A stretch of DNA of 64,000 bases from a bacterium (GCA_965213685.1 CBDBZY010000064.1:448001-512000); one strand, 5' to 3'; counted from the stretch's first letter, positions 18,961 to 56,898 are shown. Program-made: numbers and translations. The notes: a model not told the origin generated them from the sequence alone.

Positions 18961-19269
18961 GGCTAGAGTTTCAATTAGGTGCTGCCCCAGGCACACAGGA
19001 TGAGAGAGCTGCATGTGTTTTCTACTGCAGAGATCTACATGCACGCACTATGAGTGATTTTGCAGGTGTAGAGTGTAGAGGGACAGTCCCCACCACATGC
19101 ATAGCTAATGTGAGGCACATATCAGATCTCTCCTGGAGCACTCTGTTTATTTATTATTTGTGTACACAGCAAATGAACACATACTCTTCCAGGTAGGAGT
19201 ACACACCCAAGTGCTAATCTTCAAGTCAATACAGTGTGTACAATCACTACATAAGGAGTACATCTCTGC

Positions 19270-20059
19270 TCAGAGCTGCTCCAGGAGTGAGTCAGAGAGG
19301 CTGCAGGTGAGGCCAACACCATCTGGCTCTATGTACAGGGATTTCACCACTGAGTTCTCAACAACCATGGCATACCTGAGGACAGGGGGGGCAGAGGGAG
19401 GGTAAACAGGTGTACATGGCTAATGCACTACACTGCAGTACACAGTACACATGTACTGGAGTACCGTTTGGAACGGAAATTGCCCAGAAACTTCACGGCA
19501 TCTAACTCTAGATCCACAGCCTGCATGAGATCGTGACATGCTCCTGTCAACACACAGACGAGCACATGCCCCTGCGAGTCACACGCATCCCCTCACCTTG
19601 GTGAAGGTGCCATTTGTGTCAGCCAGCATTCTGATCTTGCCCTCTGCACCACTGGCCTCTCCCCACGCTGCCATCACGAAGGAATCATTCACAGAGATGC
19701 AGGCAATCACCTCCACCCCCTTGGCCTTCAGCTTCTCGTAGTCTTCCACGTAACCAGGAAGGTGAGTCTGTAGCATAAATACATGTACATATGTCTGTAG
19801 CAAGGCCTAAGAGAATGACCGTTTGGCCCTCCTCTCTACATCAAGCCCCACCTTGGAACAGCCTGGAGTGAAGGCTCCAGGCACGCCAAACAGTACACCC
19901 TTCTTCCCGGCAAAGAGTTCCTTCACGTTCACCCTGTCACTGGGAGTCCCTTCGTGGACGTCCACTGACGGGAGTGGATCTCCTACCTACGAGTGCGCGT
20001 GCTCGTCAAGTACGCAGGACCCCGGGTCAGCGAACACCCCCTCTCACCTTAATGGGCAT
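19270..20059 (-). CDS. PRDX5: Peroxiredoxin-5 (atypical 2-Cys), 5 exons
   Basis: MPIK | VGDPLPSV..KKGVLFGVPGAFTPGCSK | THLPGYV..IACISVNDSFVMAAWG..MLADTNGTFTK | AVDLELDA..GNFRSKR | YAMVVENSVVKSLYIEPDGVGLTCSLSDSLLEQL*. Confidence 0.93.
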
Positions 20060-20599
20060 CCTGAGAGCAGCAGCCCCTGACAGACCTCTTTTTCCCGACA
20101 CACGCAGCACGACATAATGAGATTAGGCTACAGGTACTCAGTACACATGCAGCAAATTAGGCCTAGTTATCAGTTGGTGCACGTGTTTTCAAAAAGAGTG
20201 TTCATTCAACACTTCCACAGCTACAGACTGCTGTACAAAAATTCTGGCAATGAAATTTGAGATGACATGGTCTAGTACTGGAACATCATGCTCACCGAAG
20301 CTTTATCCTCTCCACCTCTTCAGCTTGAAAGTCAGCATTGCAGTAAGGGCACAAAGAATCATGTGAACACACAGCACTCGACAGTTGCACTGCACTTACT
20401 CACTGAAGGTGGAGCCTACACATGGCATATGGGGTATGTCTCCACATCATGCTGCTTCCCCAGTAGTCAAAGAGTTCGCTGACCTGACAGGGGGAAAGGT
20501 GCAGGGCTAGAGTATTCCCCTCCTAATGCCATCCTACAATACACAACCCTACTGTCTCCAGAGTTATGTGGGAGATTTGCATGAAATGAGCAAACTTAA

Positions 20600-23500
20600 C
20601 CATTGCCTCATCCTCAACTGTGACTCCACCCTCAGCCATGGCCTCACCCCTACCTGTGACCTCACTCTCAACCATGTCATCACCATCCCCTGTGACCTCA
20701 CCTTCACATTTGCCAAATGACAAAAATGTGATATTTGAACCTAGAGTAACCAGTGAGGATTCTGTAAATGATTTGGTACAGAGTGATGAGGTTACCGATC
20801 CTGCTGCAGAGGACTTTGACAATCATGATCAGAATGCTGCAGGTACTTTTTTATCCCAAGTCTCAACAACACATACACTGTGTCGGGGTTCTGCAGAAGA
20901 CAAAAAGCTATCAACTCATCTACCTTATGAACAATGCTCCTTGTATTGTAGTATAGCAGCCTAACGTAATCACAATGGGCTTTTACATGTGGTGCAGGAG
21001 CTCTGTCTTCAGAGCTCACTGCTTGGCTAGATAGTGATGTGCAAAATGTAGAGATCTGCATTCCAAACTATGAACTGGTTCGCTTGGATAGAAACAGGCA
21101 TGGTGGTGGAGTTGCAATCTATGTTGCCAGTCATCTTCCTCTTTCAGTTGTTTCTTCAGGTTCTTATTGTCTTGAGTTTTTGGCAATTTCTGTAAAAACT
21201 CCTTATGGTCAATTTGTAGTAGCAGTTCTGTATATAGACCACCTTCTTCCTCCATTTCTTTCTTTGAAAATTTACATTTAGCATTGGAAGATTTGTATGT
21301 TACTGTATGTTCTAACTTCTTTATTTTTGGAGACTTCAATGTTGATGTATCAGTTCCAAGTTATCTGTGTAGTTGTTTGTGTAATGTAACTTGTCAGTAT
21401 GGCCTATCTATCATCCCTACAAGTCATACGCATGTAGCCACATCATCTGCTACCACTATTGATCTCATGCTTGCCTCTTCACCAGAATCTGTCATGAGCT
21501 GTGAAACTGTTCCTCCACTTGGCACATCTGACAATAATGGTATTCTTACTGATATATCACTACGCACCCCTTTAGCTGCTCCTCAAGTGAGTAGGAATTT
21601 TAAAGTCTGGAGATACAAATATGTAGACTTTGAACGTGCTCAAGAAATGCTCTCACAGATTGACTATAATAGTGTTGTTGTGGAAGGAGATGTCAATGCA
21701 TCATGGAAAAACTGGGAGAGGATGTTTTTGAATATTATGGAGATATGCATACCAACCACAACTGTGCCCACACGAAGGAACCTTCCATGGCTGTCCAAGT
21801 CTATTCTGCAACTGATAAAGAAGAGGAACATGTACTACAGAAAATCAAAGCAGTCTCCTCATTACTTTAATAAGCACAGACTTGCCCAAAGCAAGGCATT
21901 GTCTCATCTCAGATGTGAGAGAAGGCAATACCTTCAGCAACTCCAGACAGGTAGTAAATAGTCCTTTCATGCCTGACTAAAGCTTGTTCTTGTATCCCCA
22001 CTCTACAAACAGAGCATGTGATCGCAACCACACCTCAACAAAAAGTAGACCTTTTAAGCTCAACTTTTGAAAAGAATTTTAATGTCTCTGCTACACCTTT
22101 AACTCAAGAAGATGTACTTCCAGCCCCCATTGGGGTATGTCCTACTGATCTTCTATGTTCGGAAGATGATATTATCAGATTACTTCTTACCTTGGACACT
22201 ACTAAGGCTACTGGTCTAGATGGCATCTTGGCTACAATGCTTAAGAAGACAGCTGCAGCTGCTGCACTCTTCTTAAGCATTGTAGCCAAGATGCCATCTT
22301 CACCACTGTGAACACATCTATGCAACATGTCACGTATACATGGCACAGTCCCAGAACATTTGAAAACCTCCATGGTTGTTCCAATATATAAGCAAGGTGA
22401 TACATCCAAACCTGAGAACTATCGGCCCGTGTAATTGCTACCCATAATTAGTAAGATTCTTGAGTGATATATATTTGAAAAATTTTGCACCTTTTTATAT
22501 ATTTCAGACAATCAGTGGGATTTCAATCTTCAACAGGTGCAGTATTGTCTGCTGTTCATGATTGGCAGTATCATCCAGACAGGGGTGATGAAGTTCAAGC
22601 CATATTTTTTGACTTACAGAAGGCATTTGATACCATCCCTCATGCCAAGTTAATCTCAAAGCTAGCTGACCTTGACATACCACCACACTTTTTGTCATGG
22701 ATTTCAAGTTATCTGAAACAGCAAGTTGTTGTTTCTGGTGCAATGTCACCCTCCATCAACGTTGTATCAGGTGTGCCTCAGGGCTCAGTTTTGGCACTCT
22801 TCTCTTTCTAGTTTATGTTGATGGTCTAGCTGACATGCCTCTGCATGATGGGCACCTCATGGTGTTTGCTGATGATGCTCTGCTCTACAAGGCAATTCGT
22901 AGTTCAAATGACTTGCAGGATTTGCAAATGAATGTGGATGTGTTTACTAAATGGATTGATGAACATGATCTATGTCTCAATGTCAAAAAGTGTAAATCAC
23001 TGCTGCTATGAAGAAGACAGGAGCCACTCTGTACCTACACCATCAGAGTCAATGACCATCCTATAGAAAAAGTTCAGTCTTACAAGTATCTAGGAGTTAT
23101 TATATCTAGTGATCTATCCTGGGGCAATCATGTCTCTAGTGTGTCTTCCAAAGCTATGAAGCATATGGGTATGCTGTATCGTTGCTTCTACCGTGACTGT
23201 ACACCAGACACATTGAGAACACTTTATATTTCATGTGTGAGACCACTACTGGAGTATGCTGTACCTGTTTGGGACTCTCATCTAGTGAAAGACATTCACG
23301 CTTTGGAGTCTGTTCAACAATTTGCCACTAAGGTGTGTACAAAAACCTGGAGGGATGTCAGCTACTCTGAACGTCTTCCAACTCTTCAGGTTAGGTGCAT
23401 GCTTCTGAAACTCTGTTTGCTTTATAAAATCATTCATAGTAATGCCTTCATGCCTAACTGTCCTGTTAAGTTCAGACATAACCAATATTTACTCCACAAG

Positions 23501-23770
23501 GTCCAGTTGCTACAACATTCAAGTGCTTTTTGCTCGTACTGCAGGTTTTTATAACTCATTTTTCTGTCACTCCACTCGCCTATGGAACACTTTGCCTGTT
23601 GAAGTTCATCATTGTCATCTTTTAAGAAAGCTTGCAACTCCCTGCTTACACTGTGAGCTATATTATTTGTTATATATATTTTTCTCCTTTTTGGGTACAT
23701 GCACTGTATTAGCTTATTAGCTATCTATTGTATCCTATGTCTTGTACATGAACTATTATAGATATAAAAA
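20600..23770 (+). mobile_element. Degenerate CR1/L2-type LINE (ORF1 3' end, APE endonuclease, RT, A-rich tail)
   Basis: RLDRNRHGGGVAIYV, GDFNVD, FFDLQKAFD, SGVPQGSVL, VFADD and RPLLEYAVPVW motifs broken by stops; internal inversion 20856-21026; foldback 22218-22299. Confidence 0.9.
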
Positions 23771-23867
23771 CACACACACTGGCCAACTGGTATGGGAGCC
23801 TATCAGAACCTGCAGGTGTCTGTCCAACGGCACACCTTCCAACTGAGGGTGAGAAGACAAGATAGGT

Positions 23868-24292
23868 CTGGAGGTGGGGCTGAGGGTGGGGCTGGTTGTG
23901 GTACAAAGAGTGGGGCTGGGGGTGGGGCTGGAGGTGGAACTGAGGGTGGGACTGAGGGTGGGACTGAGGGTGGGGCTGGGGGTGGGACTGAAGGTGGAGC
24001 TGGAGGTGGGGTTGAAGGTGGGACTGAGGGGGGGCTGGAGGTGGGACTGAGGGTGGGGCTGGGGGTGGGACTGAAGGTGGAGCTGGAGGTGGGGTTGAAG
24101 GTGGGACTGAGGGTGGGGCTGGGGGTGGGGCTGGAGGTGGGACTGAGGGTGGGGCTCAGGGTGGGGTTGAAGGTGAGACTGAGGGTGGGGCTGGGGGTGG
24201 GCTGGGGGTGGGGCTGGAGGTGGGACTGAGGGTGGGGCTCAGGGTGGGGTTGAAGGTGGGACTGAGGGTGGGACTGGGGGTGGGGCTGGAGG
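23868..24292. repeat. G-rich ~12-bp minisatellite (gggtggggctga-like), G-quadruplex prone
   Basis: Direct reading of tandem units. Confidence 0.85.
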
Positions 24293-32959: not shown

Positions 32960-33145
32960 TAGTATATTTCTTCGGTACAGTGGAACGAAATAGGTTACCC
33001 GTTGAAGAGGGTGTCAAGTCTCTTTGGAGCAGTAAACTTAGGTCTACATGCGCCATTGCGAGCGTTATAATCTACATGCGCCATTGCGAGCGTTATAATC
33101 TCTGCCTTTCTTCATGTGGAGTCTCTCTCTCCCCCCTGTTCAGTG
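32960..33145 (+). pseudogene. Decayed 5' fragment of an ELOVL6-like paralog
   Basis: tacatgcgccattgcgagcgttataatctc (duplicated in tandem)...ttcatgtggagtctctctctccccctgttcagt matches ~39327-39401; also resembles the start region 39170-39215. Confidence 0.7.
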
Positions 33146-33371
33146 TGTACATGTACTGCTTGAAGAAAATAGTTCAAAGCAGCCATTAACAAACTGTTGA
33201 GCGTGCTTCTAATTAATAATAATAGTGAAGTCCGTACGAGTGAAAATCCTACGCTCGTGCTGTCTGGACAACCTGTGGCCCGTTTGGAGCGCTCTGGTGA
33301 AGCTACAAAATAGTCAGCTACAAAACAGTCAGCAGATATATGCCCACACCAATTGTGCAAATGTCAAGGAG

Positions 33372-34690
33372 ATGCCGCCTAAGAGGACGCAGTCTCGTGT
33401 GCAGAAGACGCCTGCAGGACAGGTGCCTGTTCAGACGCGAGCAAAGACAGAACACTGTGCTTTGTGCTGTCAGAAGATTGTGCACAACAAGGAGGATGTC
33501 TTGTTTTGTACTGCCAAGTGCAACGGTCCGATTCACCGTTACTGTGCTGGTGTCTCTGTTCTTCAGTTCGAAGAAATGAAAGCGACTTCTGCGACGGCCA
33601 CTGCACCTACCCCTGGTTCCAAGCGAGTACCATTTTTGTGCCTCGTATGCACACAGCACGCTCACAAAGAAGAGGTCCATGAGCTTAAGAGCATAATCGC
33701 TGCCATGAAATTTAAGATGCATGACTTGCAAGATACTGTGCAAAAGCTGTCAGTTTCCGTTGCTTCTTGTTGCAATGCTGGTCTCCCTTCATCGTTTGCT
33801 GCTGCTACGGCATCAAACCGTGGGCATGCTAAGCATAGGAAACATGCAGACAAGTTCAATAGAGGTGGGAATGGTGGAGTTGGGTCAGGTGGTGTGGTTG
33901 GGAGAGGTGAATTTGAAATGCAGGGTGACAGCTGTGATGGTGTGACTGGTGTGACCAGTGTGACTGGTATGGTAAGGAGTGGTGGTTGTGGGGCTGGTGC
34001 AGATGGCCGTGGAGGTGGGCGTGGTAGTGCTGGTGCTGGTGCTGGTAGTGGGCGTGGGTCTGGGGGTAGTGGTGGTGGGAGGAGTGGTGGAGAGGTTAGG
34101 AGGAGGTTGCACAGATTTGAAAGAGGTGTGCCAGTAGAGAATGCAAGAAAGATTTGGGGGACCCTGAAAACTACTACCTGTTCAGTTATCACCTCTGTCA
34201 TCAGAAAGTTTACATCCAAGTCACTTGCAGATAGCCTCATGGTGAAGAGGAAGTACAAGACCAGTCAGGATGGTTCACTAAAGAGATGGTGGTATGTGGT
34301 GTGTGGTGAGAAACCGGATGTGGAGAGGCTTGTGGTGAGAAACCGGATGTGGAGAGGCTTGAACGAAAATGGGAAGCCATTGCTATACACACTGGATGGA
34401 AACTGCAGGCCGTATTTCGTTTCGATGGTTGTGATGCAGCTACTCCCCTCTCCTCTGATGTTCCTGCTACACCCACTTCTGATAAACAGGTATCAGATAC
34501 ACAGCCTGCTGTTCAACACATTAGCTCTCACAATGGTGATGTATTTGAGCCTGTCCACTCATTGTCAGCCAATGATAAAGGCAGTGGTGGTGAAACCATC
34601 GTTGTCACTAACACTTCTAGCCCAACCAGTTCTTTTTTAGAGTCCCATCCAGAGTCTCCTCTACTGGAGATCAAATCCCCTCAGTGCTAA
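33372..34690 (+). pseudogene. LINE ORF1 (PHD finger, coiled coil, Gly-rich), frameshifted by a 29-bp tandem duplication
   Basis: CALC..C..CNGPIHRYC..FLCLVC; duplication at 34302-34361; native C-terminus continues ERKWEAIAIHTGWKLQ..SFLESHPESPLLEIKSPQC*. Confidence 0.8.
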
Positions 34691-37536
34691 ATTGTCCAAG
34701 GCATGCCGTGGAGGGTGTACGCTCTCATTTCAGTAATGAAAAGCAACTACAAGTATTGTACTTTAATGCAAGAAGTTTAACCCCAAAGTTGGATGAATTG
34801 CGTGTTCTCTGTGACTTAAGAAAACCAGACATTGTGTGCATTACTGAAAGTTGGCTATGTGAAGACATTGGTCCATCAGAATGCTCCATACATGGATACC
34901 ATTGTGTAAGATGTGATAGGCACAGACATGGAGGTGGTGTAGCATTGTTCATATCTGATCTGTTAGAGTCTCATGTAATTCTGTGTGGTCCTAACAAGCT
35001 AGAGCTGCTACTTGTCTCAGTTCACAATACACACCATCCCAACCACAAGTTATACATTGGTGTGTGGTATAGGCCACCAGACAACTCGGATGCTTTAGAT
35101 TCTTTATATTCTGTTCTGGAGACCCTTGACATTTCTATTTTTTCAAGATTTTTGTTGGTTGGGGACTTCAATGTTGATTTTTCAAACAAGCAGCATCCTC
35201 TCTTTTATAAGCTCCTCACTATATTGGATAGTTTTTTACTGGCGCAGGTGGTACCTGGTCCAACACACATCAGTTCCTCTGGAAATCAAACACTTATAGA
35301 CCTAGCCCTACTTTCAAATCCAGCTCTGCTGGTATCGTGTTCCATTACAGCACCTTTTAGTAACTCGGACCATGATGGAATAAGTATTTATCTCTTATGG
35401 AATAACATAGCATCCCCAAGCATTAAGACAAGAACAATATGGAGATATGAGTATGCGGATTTTGAGAGGGCCAATGTACTGATAAACACTGTTGATTGGT
35501 CACTCTTTTACACTGAGGCTGACATTGACAAGGCCTGGGAGTTGTGGTTGAGAACATTCTTGTCCATAATGAATGAATGCATTCCAAAGAAAACTATCAC
35601 CCAGAAGTGCACCCTTCCATGGATGAACAAGTTCATTCAGACTAAAATTAAAAAGAGAAACTCAGCATACAAAAGGGCAAAACAAACTAGAGTCTTTGAT
35701 GGTTACAAGAAACTTAGGAATGAGGTAGTGAATCTGTTGCGCATTTCGAAGAGAGACTATTTGAGGAAGTCATGTTTGGGAGGAAGTAAAAAGTTTTGGA
35801 AAGTTGTAAAGCATATCAAGAATTCATCCAACCATGCTATTCCAGCTTTAAGAGTGAAATCTACTGTTGCATCATCTAATGTTGAGAAAGCTACTCTATT
35901 GAATCTAACACTTGCAACTAACTTCAATCATAGTGTTCATCCATTGTCTCCTTCTAATATCCACATTTTCCAGGCAAATCCTTCATCACCAATATCCAAT
36001 GAAGTCCTTTGTGTAGAGGATGACATTTTTTGTTTATTAAACACTATTGATGTCACAAAAGCTTCTGGACCTGATGGAATATCTGGATACATGCTGAAGG
36101 GTACAGCGGAAGCTATCACACCAACAGTAACGCATCTGTTTAACCTGTCATTAAAATCTGGTAAGGTACCTGAGGCATGGAAAACATCATCTGTGGTTCC
36201 AATACCTAAGGCTCACAGACCATCTGATAATCCTATCAACTACAGACCAATTTCTTTGCTGTCTACAGTGAGCAAGCTTCTAGAAAAGCATGTTTATAAG
36301 CTGCTGTGGCAACATCTTAATGCAAATGGACTTGTATCTGATTCTCAATGGGGATTCTGCCCAAGTAGATCAACAGTTACAGCCTTACTGTCCACCTTTC
36401 ATGCAATATTTCAATTGTTGGAAAAGGGATCAGACGTGTGTCTAATATTCTTTGACTTGCGTAAAGCATTTGACAGTGTGCCACATGCTCCTCTACTTCA
36501 GCATCTAAAGGATATTGGGCTTAACTCACACATCCTCCAATGGATCTCCTCATATCTGTGTTGTAGAAAACAGTATGTTGTTGTTGAGGGAACATCATCC
36601 AGCACTACTTCTGTTCCATCTGGGGTCCCACAGGGATCTGTCCTGGGTCCCTTGCTCTTTCTGACATACATAAATTGTGTAGCTGATCTTGGCTTCTCTG
36701 ATGGAACATTGATCTCAATGTATGCTGATGACATACTTTTGTGGAAGCCCATCAAGTGCTCCAATGATTATGTCTACCTACAGACAGATATTAATAACAT
36801 TTCCAACTGTATTAAAAGCTTATATCTGTCACTGAACTCTTCTAAATGTAAGTACATCATTGCATCACGAAAGAGACAGCCTACACTACCATCTTCAGGG
36901 CTACATCTGAATGGTGAAGCTCTGGAACATGTTAGGAGTTATCAGTACCTGGGCATACTTGTCACTGAAACTCTTACTTGGTCTGAGCACATACAGCAAG
37001 TGTGCTCAAAGGCAAGAAAGCTAATTGGAATGATGTACAGGCAATTCTACTTCTGGACAAGCACATCTGTTCTTCGATCCATATACATAACATGTATTCG
37101 CCCTCACTTGGAGTATGCTGCTCAGCTGTGGGACCCGCATGTCAAGAGAAACATTCAAATGTTAGAGTCAGTGCAAAAGTTTGCATGTAAAGTGTGCTTG
37201 AAATGCTGGGACATGGACTATGATAACATGCTGCACTGTCTTGATTTACCTCTTCTTCGTGTCAGGCGTCAACATCTTAAGCTCATCACTATGTTCAACA
37301 TTATTAATGGAAACATAGTTTTTCCAGCAGGTATCTTCAATCTACACCAGCATTTGTCACAGAGAAACAATTCATCTGTATTTCACAGACTCCATTCTCA
37401 CACCAACTACTTCTATTTTTCATATGTACCTAGCGTTATTACTGTTTGGAATACTTTACCAGTAGACATAAGATCATCATCATCTGTTTCTGTTTTTAAG
37501 CATAACTTACCGCACTGGGCTCATGTCTTGTATTAG
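34633..37536 (+). CDS. LINE ORF2: APE endonuclease plus reverse transcriptase
   Basis: YFNARS, ITESW, GDFN, SDH, NYRPISLL, FFDLRKAFD, GVPQGSVLGP, YADD; open for over 950 codons; no ATG before 35569. Confidence 0.93.
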   Translation, partial: FFRVPSRVSSTGDQIPSVLNCPRHAVEGVRSHFSNEKQLQVLYFNARSLTPKLDELRVLCDLRKPDIVCITESWLCEDIGPSECSIHGYHCVRCDRHRHGGGVALFISDLLESHVILCGPNKLELLLVSVHNTHHPNHKLYIGVWYRPPDNSDALDSLYSVLETLDISIFSRFLLVGDFNVDFSNKQHPLFYKLLTILDSFLLAQVVPGPTHISSSGNQTLIDLALLSNPALLVSCSITAPFSNSDHDGISIYLLWNNIASPSIKTRTIWRYEYADFERANVLINTVDWSLFYTEADIDKAWELWLRTFLSIMNECIPKKTITQKCTLPWMNKFIQTKIKKRNSAYKRAKQTRVFDGYKKLRNEVVNLLRISKRDYLRKSCLGGSKKFWKVVKHIKNSSNHAIPALRVKSTVASSNVEKATLLNLTLATNFNHSVHPLSPSNIHIFQANPSSPISNEVLCVEDDIFCLLNTIDVTKASGPDGISGYMLKGTAEAITPTVTHLFNLSLKSGKVPEAWKTSSVVPIPKAHRPSDNPINYRPISLLSTVSKLLEKHVYKLLWQHLNANGLVSDSQWGFCPSRSTVTALLSTFHAIFQLLEKGSDVCLIFFDLRKAFDSVPHAPLLQHLKDIGLNSHILQWISSYLCCRKQYVVVEGTSSSTTSVPSGVPQGSVLGPLLFLTYINCVADLGFSDGTLISMYADDILLWKPIKCSNDYVYLQTDINNISNCIKSLYLSLNSSKCKYIIASRKRQPTLPSSGLHLNGEALEHVRSYQYLGILVTETLTWSEHIQQVCSKARKLIGMMYRQFYFWTSTSVLRSIYITCIRPHLEYAAQLWDPHVKRNIQMLESVQKFACKVCLKCWDMDYDNMLHCLDLPLLRVRRQHLKLITMFNIINGNIVFPAGIFNLHQHLSQRNNSSVFHRLHSHTNYFYFSYVPSVITVWNTLPVDIRSSSSVSVFKHNLPHWAHVLY

Positions 37537-37994
37537 CTTACAGCTATTTACATGTTGCCTCCCATATCTTTGTACTGTACTTCTTATCTCACTTGTATAG
37601 AAAAAAAAAACAAAAAAACAAAAAAAGTGCTGGTGGACTGCTGATTTCCCTAGCCTGGCGCCTCGTATCAAGGACGCGCCGAGTGGAGGAAGCACGTGCG
37701 GGGGGCCGCGTGCGGAGAAGGAATCTGGGTACTTTGTAAACTAGTCTACTACGCAAAACATTCAGTAAATGTTTACTGACAAGCGATTTCGATGCTGCGT
37801 TAACGTTGTTGTAGGTTTTGTCTTTAGTAAAGCAAGGCTAGAACGTGCTGAGCAAAGAGAGGTAGCTAGTATCCTTGGGACGCATTCTGCTTGAAGAAAG
37901 ACGTCTCTAGCTCTCTCTGGCCTGAAATCTGACTTGGACCCAGCTTCTGCTTGTTGCAAGCAACTGCGGAAATGAAAAGTAGGAGATAGCATGC

Positions 37995-39197: not shown

Positions 39198-40136
39198 ATG
39201 GATTACCTGTTGAAAATCGAGGAGAGGTTCGACAAAGCAAAGGCCGTCTCGTTCATGCAGAACTACTGGCACTACTCGCTGTACATTTCTGCTTTCTACG
39301 TGGTCAGTGTGTTCTCTTTGAAGCGGTACATGCGCCATCGCGAGCGTTACAATCTCCGCTTTCCTCTCTTCATGTGGAGTCTGTCCCTGTCCCTGTTCAG
39401 TATGGTGGGGTTCGTGGTTTCCGGAGTACGACACGTTACTCACCTCTTTCACAGCGGATGGGAGAGCAGCGTGTGTGATGATGTGTTCACCACCGGCAGG
39501 CCAGGTCTCTGGGCTTTCCTCTTTTGCTTCTCCAAGCTACCAGAGCTTACTGACACCTACTTTATCATTGCACGGAAACAGAGACTTATATTCCTTCACT
39601 GGTATCACCACATCACTGTCTTCGTCTACTGTTGGTACAACTATGGTTATCAAACAAACCCAGCTCAGTGGTTTATAACTCTCAACTACTTTGTTCATTC
39701 CATTATGTACCTGTACTATGCTGTTCGTGCATCGGGCCGGTTCCGTCCGCCGATATGGGTAAACATGATCATCACAGTGTTGCAGATCCTGCAGATGGTC
39801 CTGGGGGTGTACATCAATCTATATATCTACGTTAGAATGGCCCAAGACTCCAACTGGAAATGTGACAGAACCACGTACTCGTTTCTGTACTTGTCTTCTG
39901 CCATGTACTTCAGCTACTTCGTACTCTTTGCTCACTTCTTTTGGAGTACCTATTTCAGCAAGTCACTGAAATCCGACAAAAAGCCACGGGCAGAAGGAGA
40001 GCAATATAGTGGGAGCACTCCTGAAATGGATACACGTGTTCTCTGCAATGGCCTCTCAAGTAATAGATCAGTCATCCACAGGGCAAATGGGGTGGGCCCC
40101 AAGTGTCAGGGTGGTGTGATTGGCACAAGACATTAA
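39198..40136 (+). CDS. ELOVL6: ELOVL6/3-like fatty acid elongase, intronless, 312 aa
   Basis: SKLPELTDT, RKQRLIFLHWYHH, NYFVHSIMYLYY, ITVLQILQM. Confidence 0.92.
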   Translation: MDYLLKIEERFDKAKAVSFMQNYWHYSLYISAFYVVSVFSLKRYMRHRERYNLRFPLFMWSLSLSLFSMVGFVVSGVRHVTHLFHSGWESSVCDDVFTTGRPGLWAFLFCFSKLPELTDTYFIIARKQRLIFLHWYHHITVFVYCWYNYGYQTNPAQWFITLNYFVHSIMYLYYAVRASGRFRPPIWVNMIITVLQILQMVLGVYINLYIYVRMAQDSNWKCDRTTYSFLYLSSAMYFSYFVLFAHFFWSTYFSKSLKSDKKPRAEGEQYSGSTPEMDTRVLCNGLSSNRSVIHRANGVGPKCQGGVIGTRH

Positions 40137-54920: not shown

Positions 54921-56898
54921 TTAATAATAATAATAATAATAATAATACTTTTATTGACAACGGAAGCCGGGGTGGCTTATTTGCCATGCAGTGGTACACA
55001 AATGCAATTTAAATGACTTATACACAAAAGCAGATAGTTCACATAGAATGTGCACATTTGTGGATGTTAGCAGATATATGAACTTGTCAGTTGTGCTGAG
55101 CCACTGGAAAGGCGGATAATAAGCATGAACCATTGCAAAAAGTTCCCGACGTAATGTCGAGAATCTGGGACACACACAAATGAAGTGTATCTCATCTTCC
55201 ACCATCTGGCATCTCCGACACAGCCGAAGGGGTACAGGAGTAGGTGTTGGCTTATGATACCTGCCGACTTCAATTTCAAGGCGATGGCAGCTTAGTCTTA
55301 ATCGAGTGAGGGCCACTCTATGCTTTACATTTGCCACGATAGATAAATATGGTTCCTGCTCAAACTTTCTTTTAAAAAGTTGATAGGTTCTTAACTTATT
55401 TCTACCACTTCCTCTTGTACTAGTTGTTCTATGGAGCTTCTGATACCAGGATTGGATGTACTGGTCTCAGTAACGTAGCATTATTAAGTTGGTTAACTCT
55501 TTGTCACAGCCATTATATGTAAAGGCAGAAGCAAAACCTGCCCCCTCAAATATTGCTTGCACCTTGGTTAGCCAACATTGTTTGCCTTTTTCAAGCAAGT
55601 GCTTTAGATGAAGAATTGCATGTCTGAGTAGTACTGGAGCATCCTCTGAGCAGAGTCTGTTCCAGTATCTCAAAATCCTCTCTTTCCATAACAGATGGAT
55701 AGGTAGTTCACCAAGTTCACCTCGAATAGCTGCTGTAGTTGCATTAGGTGGGAGGTAAAGAACAAACTTAAGGTAGTGGTCTTCAACTCTCTCCAAATCT
55801 TGCCCTCATGAAACCCCCATAACTCACAACCATAAAATAGAATGGGTACAATCATTACATCATAAAATGTTAAGGCCACTGGGACTGGAGGGTAGAGCAG
55901 CTTGGAGAGTGCTGATTTAAGGGAAAAAACTGCCTTTTTTCCTTGATTACTAAGATGTCTTTTAGCTGTCCTGAATTCCCCATTTGATGTTACCCACACT
56001 CCCAGATACTTGTATGCACTCACTCTCTCCAGTGGGATACCTTCCCAGAAGAATGGCAATTTATCATGATTGTTACCAAATATGCAAATCTTAGTTTTCT
56101 CAGTATTGATTATTAGGTTCCACTTGTGACAGAATGTTTGCAGGGAGCTCAGGTGTTTTCTCAAACCATTTGCACTTGGAGACAATAGCAAAACATCATC
56201 TGCAAACATTAATATACTTAAAAACATATCATTTAATTGAGCTCCATCATGGTTGCCCAAAATGTCTGACTCCAGATCACTTATGAATAGGCTGAAGAGT
56301 AGTGGGCTAAGGTTGCATCCTTGTCTCACACCTTTCTGACTTGGAAATGGCTCTGTACTCTCACACCTGGACACTCTGACTCTCGATACAGCCTGGAGAT
56401 ACATTGATTTGATTACGTTAAGGCACTGCTGACTTATTCCTAATGCAACCAGTTTATTCCATAATAAATTGTGATTCACATTATCAAAAGCTTTACTGAA
56501 ATCCACAAAACAGGCAAAGAGAGCTCTCTTTTGCAACTTTGCACTTTGAATGAGACTGTTAAGGATGAACAAACAATCTGGTGTTCTCCGATTCTTCCGA
56601 AATCCAAATTGTGTTTCAGGTAGTAGCTATAGACCTCTCATTTCAGCCCAGTCATTAAGTCTGTTGAATAGCACAGTAGTGAAGAGCTTTCCAATACAGT
56701 TGAGTAGTGTTATTCCTCTATAATTATTAGGGTCCCATTTGCCACCTGCCTTGTGAATAGGGCATATAACTCCAGTAGACCAAGAAGCAGGATATTCACC
56801 AGTTCGCAAAACCTGATTTAACAGGATGGTAATTAGTCGTTCATTTAAGGCTTTGTATACATCTGGTGGGATTCCATCATCACCTGGAGATTTTCCTG
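54921..56898 (-). mobile_element. 5'-truncated RTEX-like LINE with (ATT)n tail
   Basis: PNNYRGITLL, FVDFSKAFD, GVRQGCNLSP, MFADD, and a C-terminal RLCRRC..EDEIHF..CP zinc knuckle; absent from the paralogous site at ~61900. Confidence 0.85.

Follow-up and report, generated by a model that had tools for sequence, protein, structure and literature searches.

Putative programmed -1 ribosomal frameshifting between ORF1 and ORF2 of a LINE retrotransposon family with a conserved slippery heptamer

A retrotransposon of the long interspersed nuclear element (LINE) type, which lacks long terminal repeats (LTRs), was analysed in a stretch of 64,000 nucleotides (nt) deposited under a bacterial genome (GCA_965213685.1, CBDBZY010000064.1:448001-512000; this whole stretch is called the window, and positions are counted from its first letter). 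In the native frame of the first open reading frame (ORF1) of this element, the slippery heptamer T TTT TTA lies inside the overlap with a second open reading frame (ORF2) that is in the -1 frame and has no start codon before its endonuclease domain, and the run of six T's is in register in all ten lineages aligned from the clade of the element. These comparisons make it likely that intact members of the family produce an ORF1-ORF2 fusion protein at a low level by programmed -1 ribosomal frameshifting.

The ORF1/ORF2 junction of the window element

The features of the element are as follows.

33372..34302, + strand: 5' part of ORF1, from its ATG (33372) as far as the duplication, with a Cys/His-rich PHD-like stretch and a Gly-rich low-complexity region
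34303..34360, + strand: 29-bp tandem duplication private to the window copy (units at 34303 and 34332), which shifts ORF1 out of its native frame
34332..34690, + strand: 3' part of ORF1 in the native frame of the family, with its stop codon TAA at 34688-34690
34618..34620, + strand: TAG, the last stop codon in the ORF2 frame and the 5' limit of the 70-nt overlap of ORF1 and ORF2
34621..37536, + strand: open frame of ORF2, 971 codons, with its stop codon TAG at 37534-36
34633..34639, + strand: slippery heptamer T TTT TTA, in register in the native ORF1 frame, with the predicted transframe junction ...S-F-L / R-V-P...
34648..34671, + strand: two mutually exclusive weak hairpins (34648-54 with 34661-68; 34654-59 with 34666-71)
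34708..34710, + strand: GTG in the ORF2 frame at an [M/V/L]-[E/Q]-G-x-S motif, 18 nt past the ORF1 stop codon, a candidate start codon for reinitiation
37588..37626, + strand: 3' end of the element (at about 37600), then an A-rich tail to 37626

The native ORF1 frame reads tcT TTT TTA gag at the junction (34631-34639 for tcT TTT TTA), which is the X XXY YYZ register, and ORF2 is exactly the -1 frame relative to it, reading TTT TTT AGA across the site; both points had been claimed in a sequence-only reading of the window and are confirmed. The ORF2 frame opens 12 nt upstream of the heptamer and remains open over 34621..37536. Its earliest ATG is at 35569 (codon 317), after 316 codons without one and, as the same reading had stated, 3' of the endonuclease, which was matched by the Pfam families Exo_endo_phos and Exo_endo_phos_2 at residues 47-254 (nt 34759-35382); the reverse transcriptase was matched by RVT_1 at residues 529-779 (E 2e-33; nt 36205-36957). 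No significant Pfam family was found for ORF1 of the window element, the PHD-like pattern of which is a reading by eye. The sequence TTTTTTA occurs six times on the + strand of the 64-kb window, from which about 0.002 occurrences would be expected in register per 70-nt overlap. The heptamer is identical in a second copy of the element, on contig C18 of the same genome bin, and a contig from another sequencing run (X2) shows no difference over 34611-34728.

The 29-bp tandem duplication puts the long ORF1 frame of the window (33213..34640, ATG 33372) out of the native register by the time it reaches the heptamer, and that long frame ends at TAG 34638-40. In contigs from three of the four other sequencing runs compared (X2, X9 and X12), upstream ORF1 joins straight to 34332, with one unit missing; therefore the frame that the sequence-only reading had taken as native is right for the family, in which ORF1 has 429 codons once one duplicated unit is removed. 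The contig of the fourth run (X10) begins at 34371, the position at which the truncated C18 copy also begins. In the window copy, the native-frame segment is open over 34310..34690. Because the duplication puts ribosomes into another frame, the window copy is a frameshift mutant, disabled for the frameshift route from its own ORF1 AUG. The wrong frame after the duplication happens to terminate at the TAG within TTTTTTAG.

Conservation of the heptamer within the clade

The genome bin that holds the window (G000) was searched by tblastn with the ORF2 N-terminus, and seven of the 22 candidate junction high-scoring segment pairs (HSPs) were found to have TTTTTTA just upstream. By-eye inspection covered eight of the other 15 (at least three of the remaining seven are second HSPs of counted copies), and four of these eight, namely C18:49222 and three members of a single family on C64, the contig of the window, show T TTT TTG in register. 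Three decayed copies of one family are each one substitution away from TCTTTTTTAGAC. Additional lineages (L005/L006, L011 and L016) were obtained from a second mixed genome, and a search of the mixed genome G001 added only two decayed junctions (L169 and L170), in which there was no clear heptamer.

Ten lineages were aligned, with the slippery site as the anchor. TTTTTT is in register in all ten, followed by A in seven and by G in three; the flanks have a mean pairwise identity of 28% (maximum 40%). The base before the T6 run is C in nine lineages, and the base at +8 is G in nine. Without exception, ORF2 is in the -1 frame, which is closed by a stop codon 2-15 codons upstream of the site and is open from the heptamer to the endonuclease, and the ORF1 stop codon follows 6-48 nt downstream. 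In all ten, the codon preceding the Phe codon ends in T, Phe is encoded by TTT, and Leu is encoded by TTA or TTG, never CTN; some of the T's held fixed in this way are at synonymous sites of ORF1. Because these synonymous T's are frozen, and because the 'F-F' of the ORF2 frame can be translated only by ribosomes that are already in that frame, the constraint acts on the nucleotides. Four lineages, namely the window element, A, C and L005/L006, lack any ATG from the ORF1 stop codon to the first conserved endonuclease motif.

The same alignment bears on a possibility named in the sequence-only reading, that CCTTTTTTAG followed by G is a 3' splice acceptor and that a spliced subgenomic RNA brings an upstream AUG to ORF2. 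A pyrimidine tract with AG and G is indeed present in seven of the ten lineages, and the G at +8 in nine, but the other three lineages read TTTTTTGG, without AG, which weakens the proposal. Moreover, the truncated genomic copies begin elsewhere (the C18 copy at window position 34371), and no splice joints were seen in the contigs compared, a weak point given that these contigs are of DNA or of unknown type. Splicing also has no need of a codon register and does not account for heptamers of other types in relatives of the element, and it is considered very improbable.

Junctions of more distant relatives

Scans of genome and metagenome collections yielded 160 loci (L004-L163). A tblastn comparison of these and the low-G+C contigs of G000 returned 123 rows; 74 had an upstream ORF2-frame stop codon on the contig, and 69 of the 74 were non-redundant. 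Classical XXXYYYZ heptamers were counted at these 69 junctions in the register that is correct for -1 shifting and in the two control registers.

Correct register: 30 heptamers at 26 loci (an undercount, the L005/L006 site having been missed by a boundary effect)
Control register 1: 10 heptamers at 9 loci
Control register 2: 16 heptamers at 15 loci

An ORF1 of 250 codons or more together with an ORF2 in the -1 frame is present at 13 loci, and at 11 of these a classical heptamer is in register inside the overlap (TTTTTTA in three, AAAAAAC in three, TTTAAAC in two, and AAAAAAT, AAAAAAA and CCCTTTA in one each). In-register heptamers number 14 in 708 overlap codons versus 8 in 4076 ORF1-body codons, where 1.39 would be expected in the overlaps (Poisson P 3e-10). 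The prediction that heptamer and frame would be conserved across copies and species is thus borne out twice, by the T6 run of the ten lineages and by an enrichment of about 10-fold among the wider relatives. The ORF1 of these relatives encodes a GDSL esterase in L090, L099 and L057, and a PHD finger in L085.

A chance origin of the heptamer was considered and is ruled out by the ten-lineage alignment together with the overlap enrichment (14 versus 1.39 expected).

The diversity of heptamers is relevant to whether slippage takes place on the ribosome or on the polymerase. It is well established that -1 products can arise by transcriptional slippage (PMC5009743), and a polymerase that stuttered on T6, inserting one U in a fraction of transcripts, would place ORF2 in frame with ORF1. 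The feature conserved in the clade is in fact a homopolymer (T6, or T7 in L005/L006), and A-run heptamers are common among the relatives. The in-register sites T TTA AAC (L057 and L099) and C CCT TTA (L103), however, are not homopolymers or slippage-prone runs, and they fit slippage on the ribosome, not on the polymerase. Three relatives add a hairpin at a spacing of the frameshift type. Reverse transcription of slipped transcripts would be expected to leave T7-fused copies, whereas the sole T7 case (L005/L006) keeps its frames separate, and six bases are a short run for slippage by a eukaryotic polymerase. Polymerase stutter is therefore regarded as improbable.

In a phylogenetic tree of reverse transcriptases (63 rows), the window element belongs to a clade of eight with a support of 100 in the Shimodaira-Hasegawa-like approximate likelihood ratio test (SH-aLRT); six rows of this clade were scored as heptamer-bearing, and its remaining two rows are decayed copies. 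Seven rows in which ORF1 and ORF2 meet in ATGA or TAATG stop-start overlaps belong to another clade, of 14 rows (SH-aLRT 100). The type of junction is clustered on the tree, with 18 changes compared to a mean of 26.2 after shuffling and none of 200 shuffles as low, a result to which near-copies contribute.

Two further arrangements were noted among relatives. In L020, L043, L053, L056, L059, L074, L076 and L082, all relatives with about 30% identity, ORF1 ends in ...S-V-T-stop and is overlapped by the ATG of ORF2 as ATGA or TAATG, a stop-start arrangement that resembles the one reported for SART1 (see below); these loci are in a reverse transcriptase clade of their own. Motifs resembling 2A peptides (D[V/I]ExNPGP) are found upstream of the endonuclease in L018, L020, L032, L033 and L041 and in the proteins P0042 and P0044.

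Stop-start overlaps in the sister clade are among the facts that favour expression of ORF2 as a separate protein, through termination-dependent or other AUG-independent initiation or reinitiation near the ORF1 stop codon, for example at the [M/V/L]-[E/Q]-G codon (GTG 34708) in the window element; the T run would then be kept for some other reason, such as the C-terminal P-F-L of the ORF1 protein or an RNA element. The ORF2 homologues have in common the motif [M/V/L]-[E/Q]-G-x-S, which precedes the first endonuclease motif by about 20-25 residues, and M, V and L, the residues at its first position, are those of ATG and near-cognate codons; the M is a true ATG in P0010 and P0022, because it is internal there. 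The overlaps of the sister clade occupy 7 of its 14 rows, the heptamer and TAATG are found together in L011, P-F-L is kept without the heptamer in the copy C64:273662, and ORF2 expression in human L1 and in SART1 (see below) would offer precedents. Initiation of this kind leaves unexplained, however, the frozen ORF1-synonymous T's of all ten lineages, the -1 frame that is open from heptamer to endonuclease in every one of them, and the unrelated classical heptamers in register in the overlaps of 11 of the 13 intact relatives; moreover, AGT occupies the motif position in lineage C, and the motif is missing in L005/L006. Separate initiation of ORF2 is accordingly judged unlikely, though it is the least unlikely of the three alternatives to ribosomal frameshifting.

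Downstream RNA structure

The sequence-only reading described a stem that starts about 8 nt downstream of the heptamer. Both of its alternative stems exist in the window element: TCCAGAG (34648-54) pairs with CTACTGGA (34661-68) in a bulged stem of 7 bp with an 8-nt spacer from the heptamer, and GTCTCC (34654-59) pairs with GGAGAT (34666-71). The hairpin is no more stable than shuffled sequences and is not conserved, as detailed below, and a scan of 34400-34900 against Rfam with E values up to 10 returned no frameshift element, only a chance match to SNORD74 (E 5.5).

In the esterase-ORF1 relatives L046, L090 and L099, a GC-rich hairpin of 7-9 bp is located 10-11 nt downstream of the heptamer. 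The hairpins of L046 and L090 differ in two pairs, both of which can still form, and L099 has another helix sequence in the same place. These three loci (L046 at about 480-540) display the full textbook signal, with T TTT TTA or T TTA AAC as the heptamer and the ORF1 stop codon 0-3 nt after it.

In several lineages, though not in every one, the heptamer is followed by tracts rich in C and U, such as CCCAUCC, UCUCCUCU and CCCUCUCC; they are located at 34640-34665 in the window, at about 169457-169475 of C18 in lineage C, and in L016. A C-rich protein-binding motif stimulates frameshifting in arteriviruses.

Several observations weigh against ribosomal frameshifting as the means of ORF2 expression. 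The first concern RNA structure: the window hairpin has a minimum free energy of -8.8 kcal/mol (z -0.40), and 64 of 200 shuffled sequences fold at least as well; the 70 nt downstream of 24 heptamer-bearing loci have a mean z of -0.31 versus -0.24 upstream, which is no general excess; and no conserved downstream stimulator or common hairpin was found in the window clade, in a search that did not extend to pseudoknots. Others concern the heptamer itself. Three lineages have U UUU UUG instead of U UUU UUA, and U UUU UUG is a poor shifter in eukaryotes according to mutagenesis in reticulocyte lysate. The fragmentary copy C64:273662 reads CCA TTT TTG, with the ORF1 peptide P-F-L-D-N kept and both changes synonymous in ORF1, and two of the 13 intact relatives (L121 and L126) are without a canonical heptamer. 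An ATG is present at or near the ORF1 stop codon in some lineages (as TAATG in L011, 20 nt after the stop codon in F and 35 nt after it in L016). Finally, a register that is kept within a single clade does not count as independent evidence, since ORF1 would be broken by any indel that altered the register.

Proposed mechanism and comparison with known systems

Under programmed -1 frameshifting, ribosomes would start at the ORF1 AUG and the majority would terminate at the ORF1 stop codon, but a small fraction would slip one base back on U UUU UUA. In these ribosomes the P-site tRNA-Phe and the A-site tRNA-Leu would re-pair with UUU UUU, and reading would go on into ORF2 to yield an ORF1-ORF2 fusion of approximately 1378 residues, presumably the active form. 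The predicted outcome is a high ratio of ORF1 protein to ORF2 protein, with the enzyme tethered to an RNA-binding protein as in retroviral Gag-Pol. The efficiency of the shift is probably low, because no conserved stimulator was found. The retrovirus-style fusion that had been proposed from the sequence alone is therefore partly supported, in its heptamer and its frames and not in its hairpin, and applies to the family instead of the window copy, which is itself disabled.

The heptamer U UUU UUA is the slippery site of HIV-1 gag-pol. The retroviral arrangement resembles that of the window family in this heptamer and its register, in the overlap of an upstream ORF for a nucleic-acid-binding protein with a start-less enzyme ORF in the -1 frame, and in the logic of a fusion made at a low ratio; in contrast, the window family is non-LTR and target-primed (with an APE endonuclease) and has no protease to release the enzyme, and neither a conserved stem-loop nor a match to an Rfam frameshift element was found for it. 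Human L1 ORF2 is reportedly translated without dependence on AUG, a result ascribed to Alisch and colleagues in 2006 (as cited in PMC3708506 and PMC5009743), and its AUG-independent, low-level expression is a point of resemblance, but L1 has a spacer between its ORFs, no overlap, no slippery site and a separate ORF2 protein, unlike the window family. Gag-pol of LTR retrotransposons is similar in belonging to a retroelement with pol in the -1 frame (28 of 51 animal LTR elements; PMC5009743) and classical heptamers, and differs in the class of element and in its Gag protein, in place of which the window element has a PHD-like ORF1 product and its relatives a GDSL esterase.

Among non-LTR retrotransposons, the Dictyostelium elements TRE5-A and TRE3-A require a -1 frameshift (PMC5911963), and the statement in the sequence-only reading that studied LINEs use reinitiation or coupling is therefore incomplete. 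The TRE elements are non-LTR retrotransposons like the window family, for which a -1 frameshift is likewise proposed, and are unlike it in being amoebozoan and targeted to tRNA genes; in the accessible portions of PMC5911963, no conserved heptamer or comparative test is stated. The LINEs of Paramecium may use a +1 shift or reinitiation (PMC5405496). SART1 couples termination to reinitiation at UAAUG (Kojima et al. 2005, as cited in PMC3708506); it likewise expresses ORF2 from a bicistronic LINE RNA, and ATGA or TAATG overlaps are present in the sister clade of the window elements, but SART1 needs an ORF2 AUG at the ORF1 stop codon and makes a separate ORF2 protein, whereas in the window family the first 316 codons of ORF2 contain no AUG. 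Translation of LINE ORF2 from bicistronic RNA is otherwise described as 'not clear' (PMC3708506). The 2A-like 'StopGo' peptides of non-LTR elements (PMC3708506) are a virus-style form of recoding in APE-type LINEs and are present at the ORF2 N-terminus of distant relatives of the window element; they differ in that a peptide bond is skipped within one frame, with no change of frame, and they are absent from the window element. A review of recoding from 2016, in its accessible portions, lists no non-LTR elements other than HeT-A, TART and mammalian L1 (PMC5009743). A full-text literature search found no account of a slippery heptamer that serves ORF2 of a LINE; its scope excluded older subscription papers, some of which are reported to have proposed retrovirus-like overlaps of the ORFs in jockey-type elements.

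The element, its remnants in the window and the source of the DNA

The window element is an APE-type LINE with a poly(A) tail and recent activity. It has no LTRs, and its copies are of the LINE type, with 5' truncation, a common 3' end and a variable A tail: all six G000 copies compared have the same terminal motif, A runs of varying length and unrelated flanks, and 5'-truncated copies were found at 98-99% identity, the C18 copy being 98% identical and beginning at window position 34371. A target-site duplication of at least 8 nt was searched for at the window copy and not found. Distant database matches of the element carry only the names 'jockey' and 'X-element', from a comparison that included no reference clade set; the ORF1 types of its relatives (PHD and GDSL esterase) agree with the CR1 and L2 lineages as described in PMC4120745. 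Upstream of ORF1, a 28-bp unit is present in tandem (33044-33099; units at 33044 and 33072), and a 79-nt stretch of the 5' region (33073-33147) recurs about 6 kb downstream at 39327-39404 with 82% identity; apart from this match, no nucleotide copies of the element were found within the window by blastn.

Two remnants of other LINEs are present in the window. The first, at 19000-24000 on the + strand, is a decayed relative with several frame breaks and 34-44% identity in ORF2, remnants of which extend over 21021-23606 with their homology in the -1 frame, broken by three stop codons. It carries the following feature, which the sequence-only reading had described as an echo of the main site and which is indeed in register.

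20847..20853, + strand: the same heptamer (acT TTT TTA), in register in the ORF1-like frame of the second, divergent, decayed LINE

The second remnant, at 55808-56893 on the - strand, is a more distant reverse transcriptase fragment with 29% identity.

The window corresponds to C64:448001-512000 of G000, which is a mixed bin of contigs with about 65% G+C and long contigs with 42-53% G+C. The LINEs are carried by the latter, which include C64 (1.6 Mb) and C18 (0.8 Mb), and for this reason the window is DNA of a eukaryote that was filed under the genome of a prokaryote. Several sequencing runs that contain the stretch are labelled 'sponge metagenome', and many of the related LINE loci come from other records that are titled as bacterial or archaeal metagenome-assembled genomes.

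Implications

Gene callers place the starts of these ORF2s at arbitrary internal codons, and the arrangement of the junction thus bears on their annotation. Beyond the window family, the chances are evenly balanced that canonical -1 frameshifting is a widespread and ancient route of ORF2 expression among metazoan APE-type LINEs, in a large group whose ORF1 is of the PHD or esterase type. Clades of this group would differ in which classical viral heptamer they use (U UUU UUA/G, U UUA AAC or A AAA AAC), some with the addition of a spaced GC hairpin, and sister clades would have switched to stop-start overlaps or to 2A peptides; the active replicase would be the ORF1-ORF2 fusion, an analogue of Gag-Pol without a protease. 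If this is true, there would be a simple and testable answer to how ORF2 is expressed in a large group of invertebrate LINEs. The reverse transcriptase would work as a fusion with ORF1, which bears on cis-preference and on particle assembly, and non-LTR elements would share the recoding devices of RNA viruses and retroviruses, namely frameshifts, stop-start overlaps and 2A peptides.
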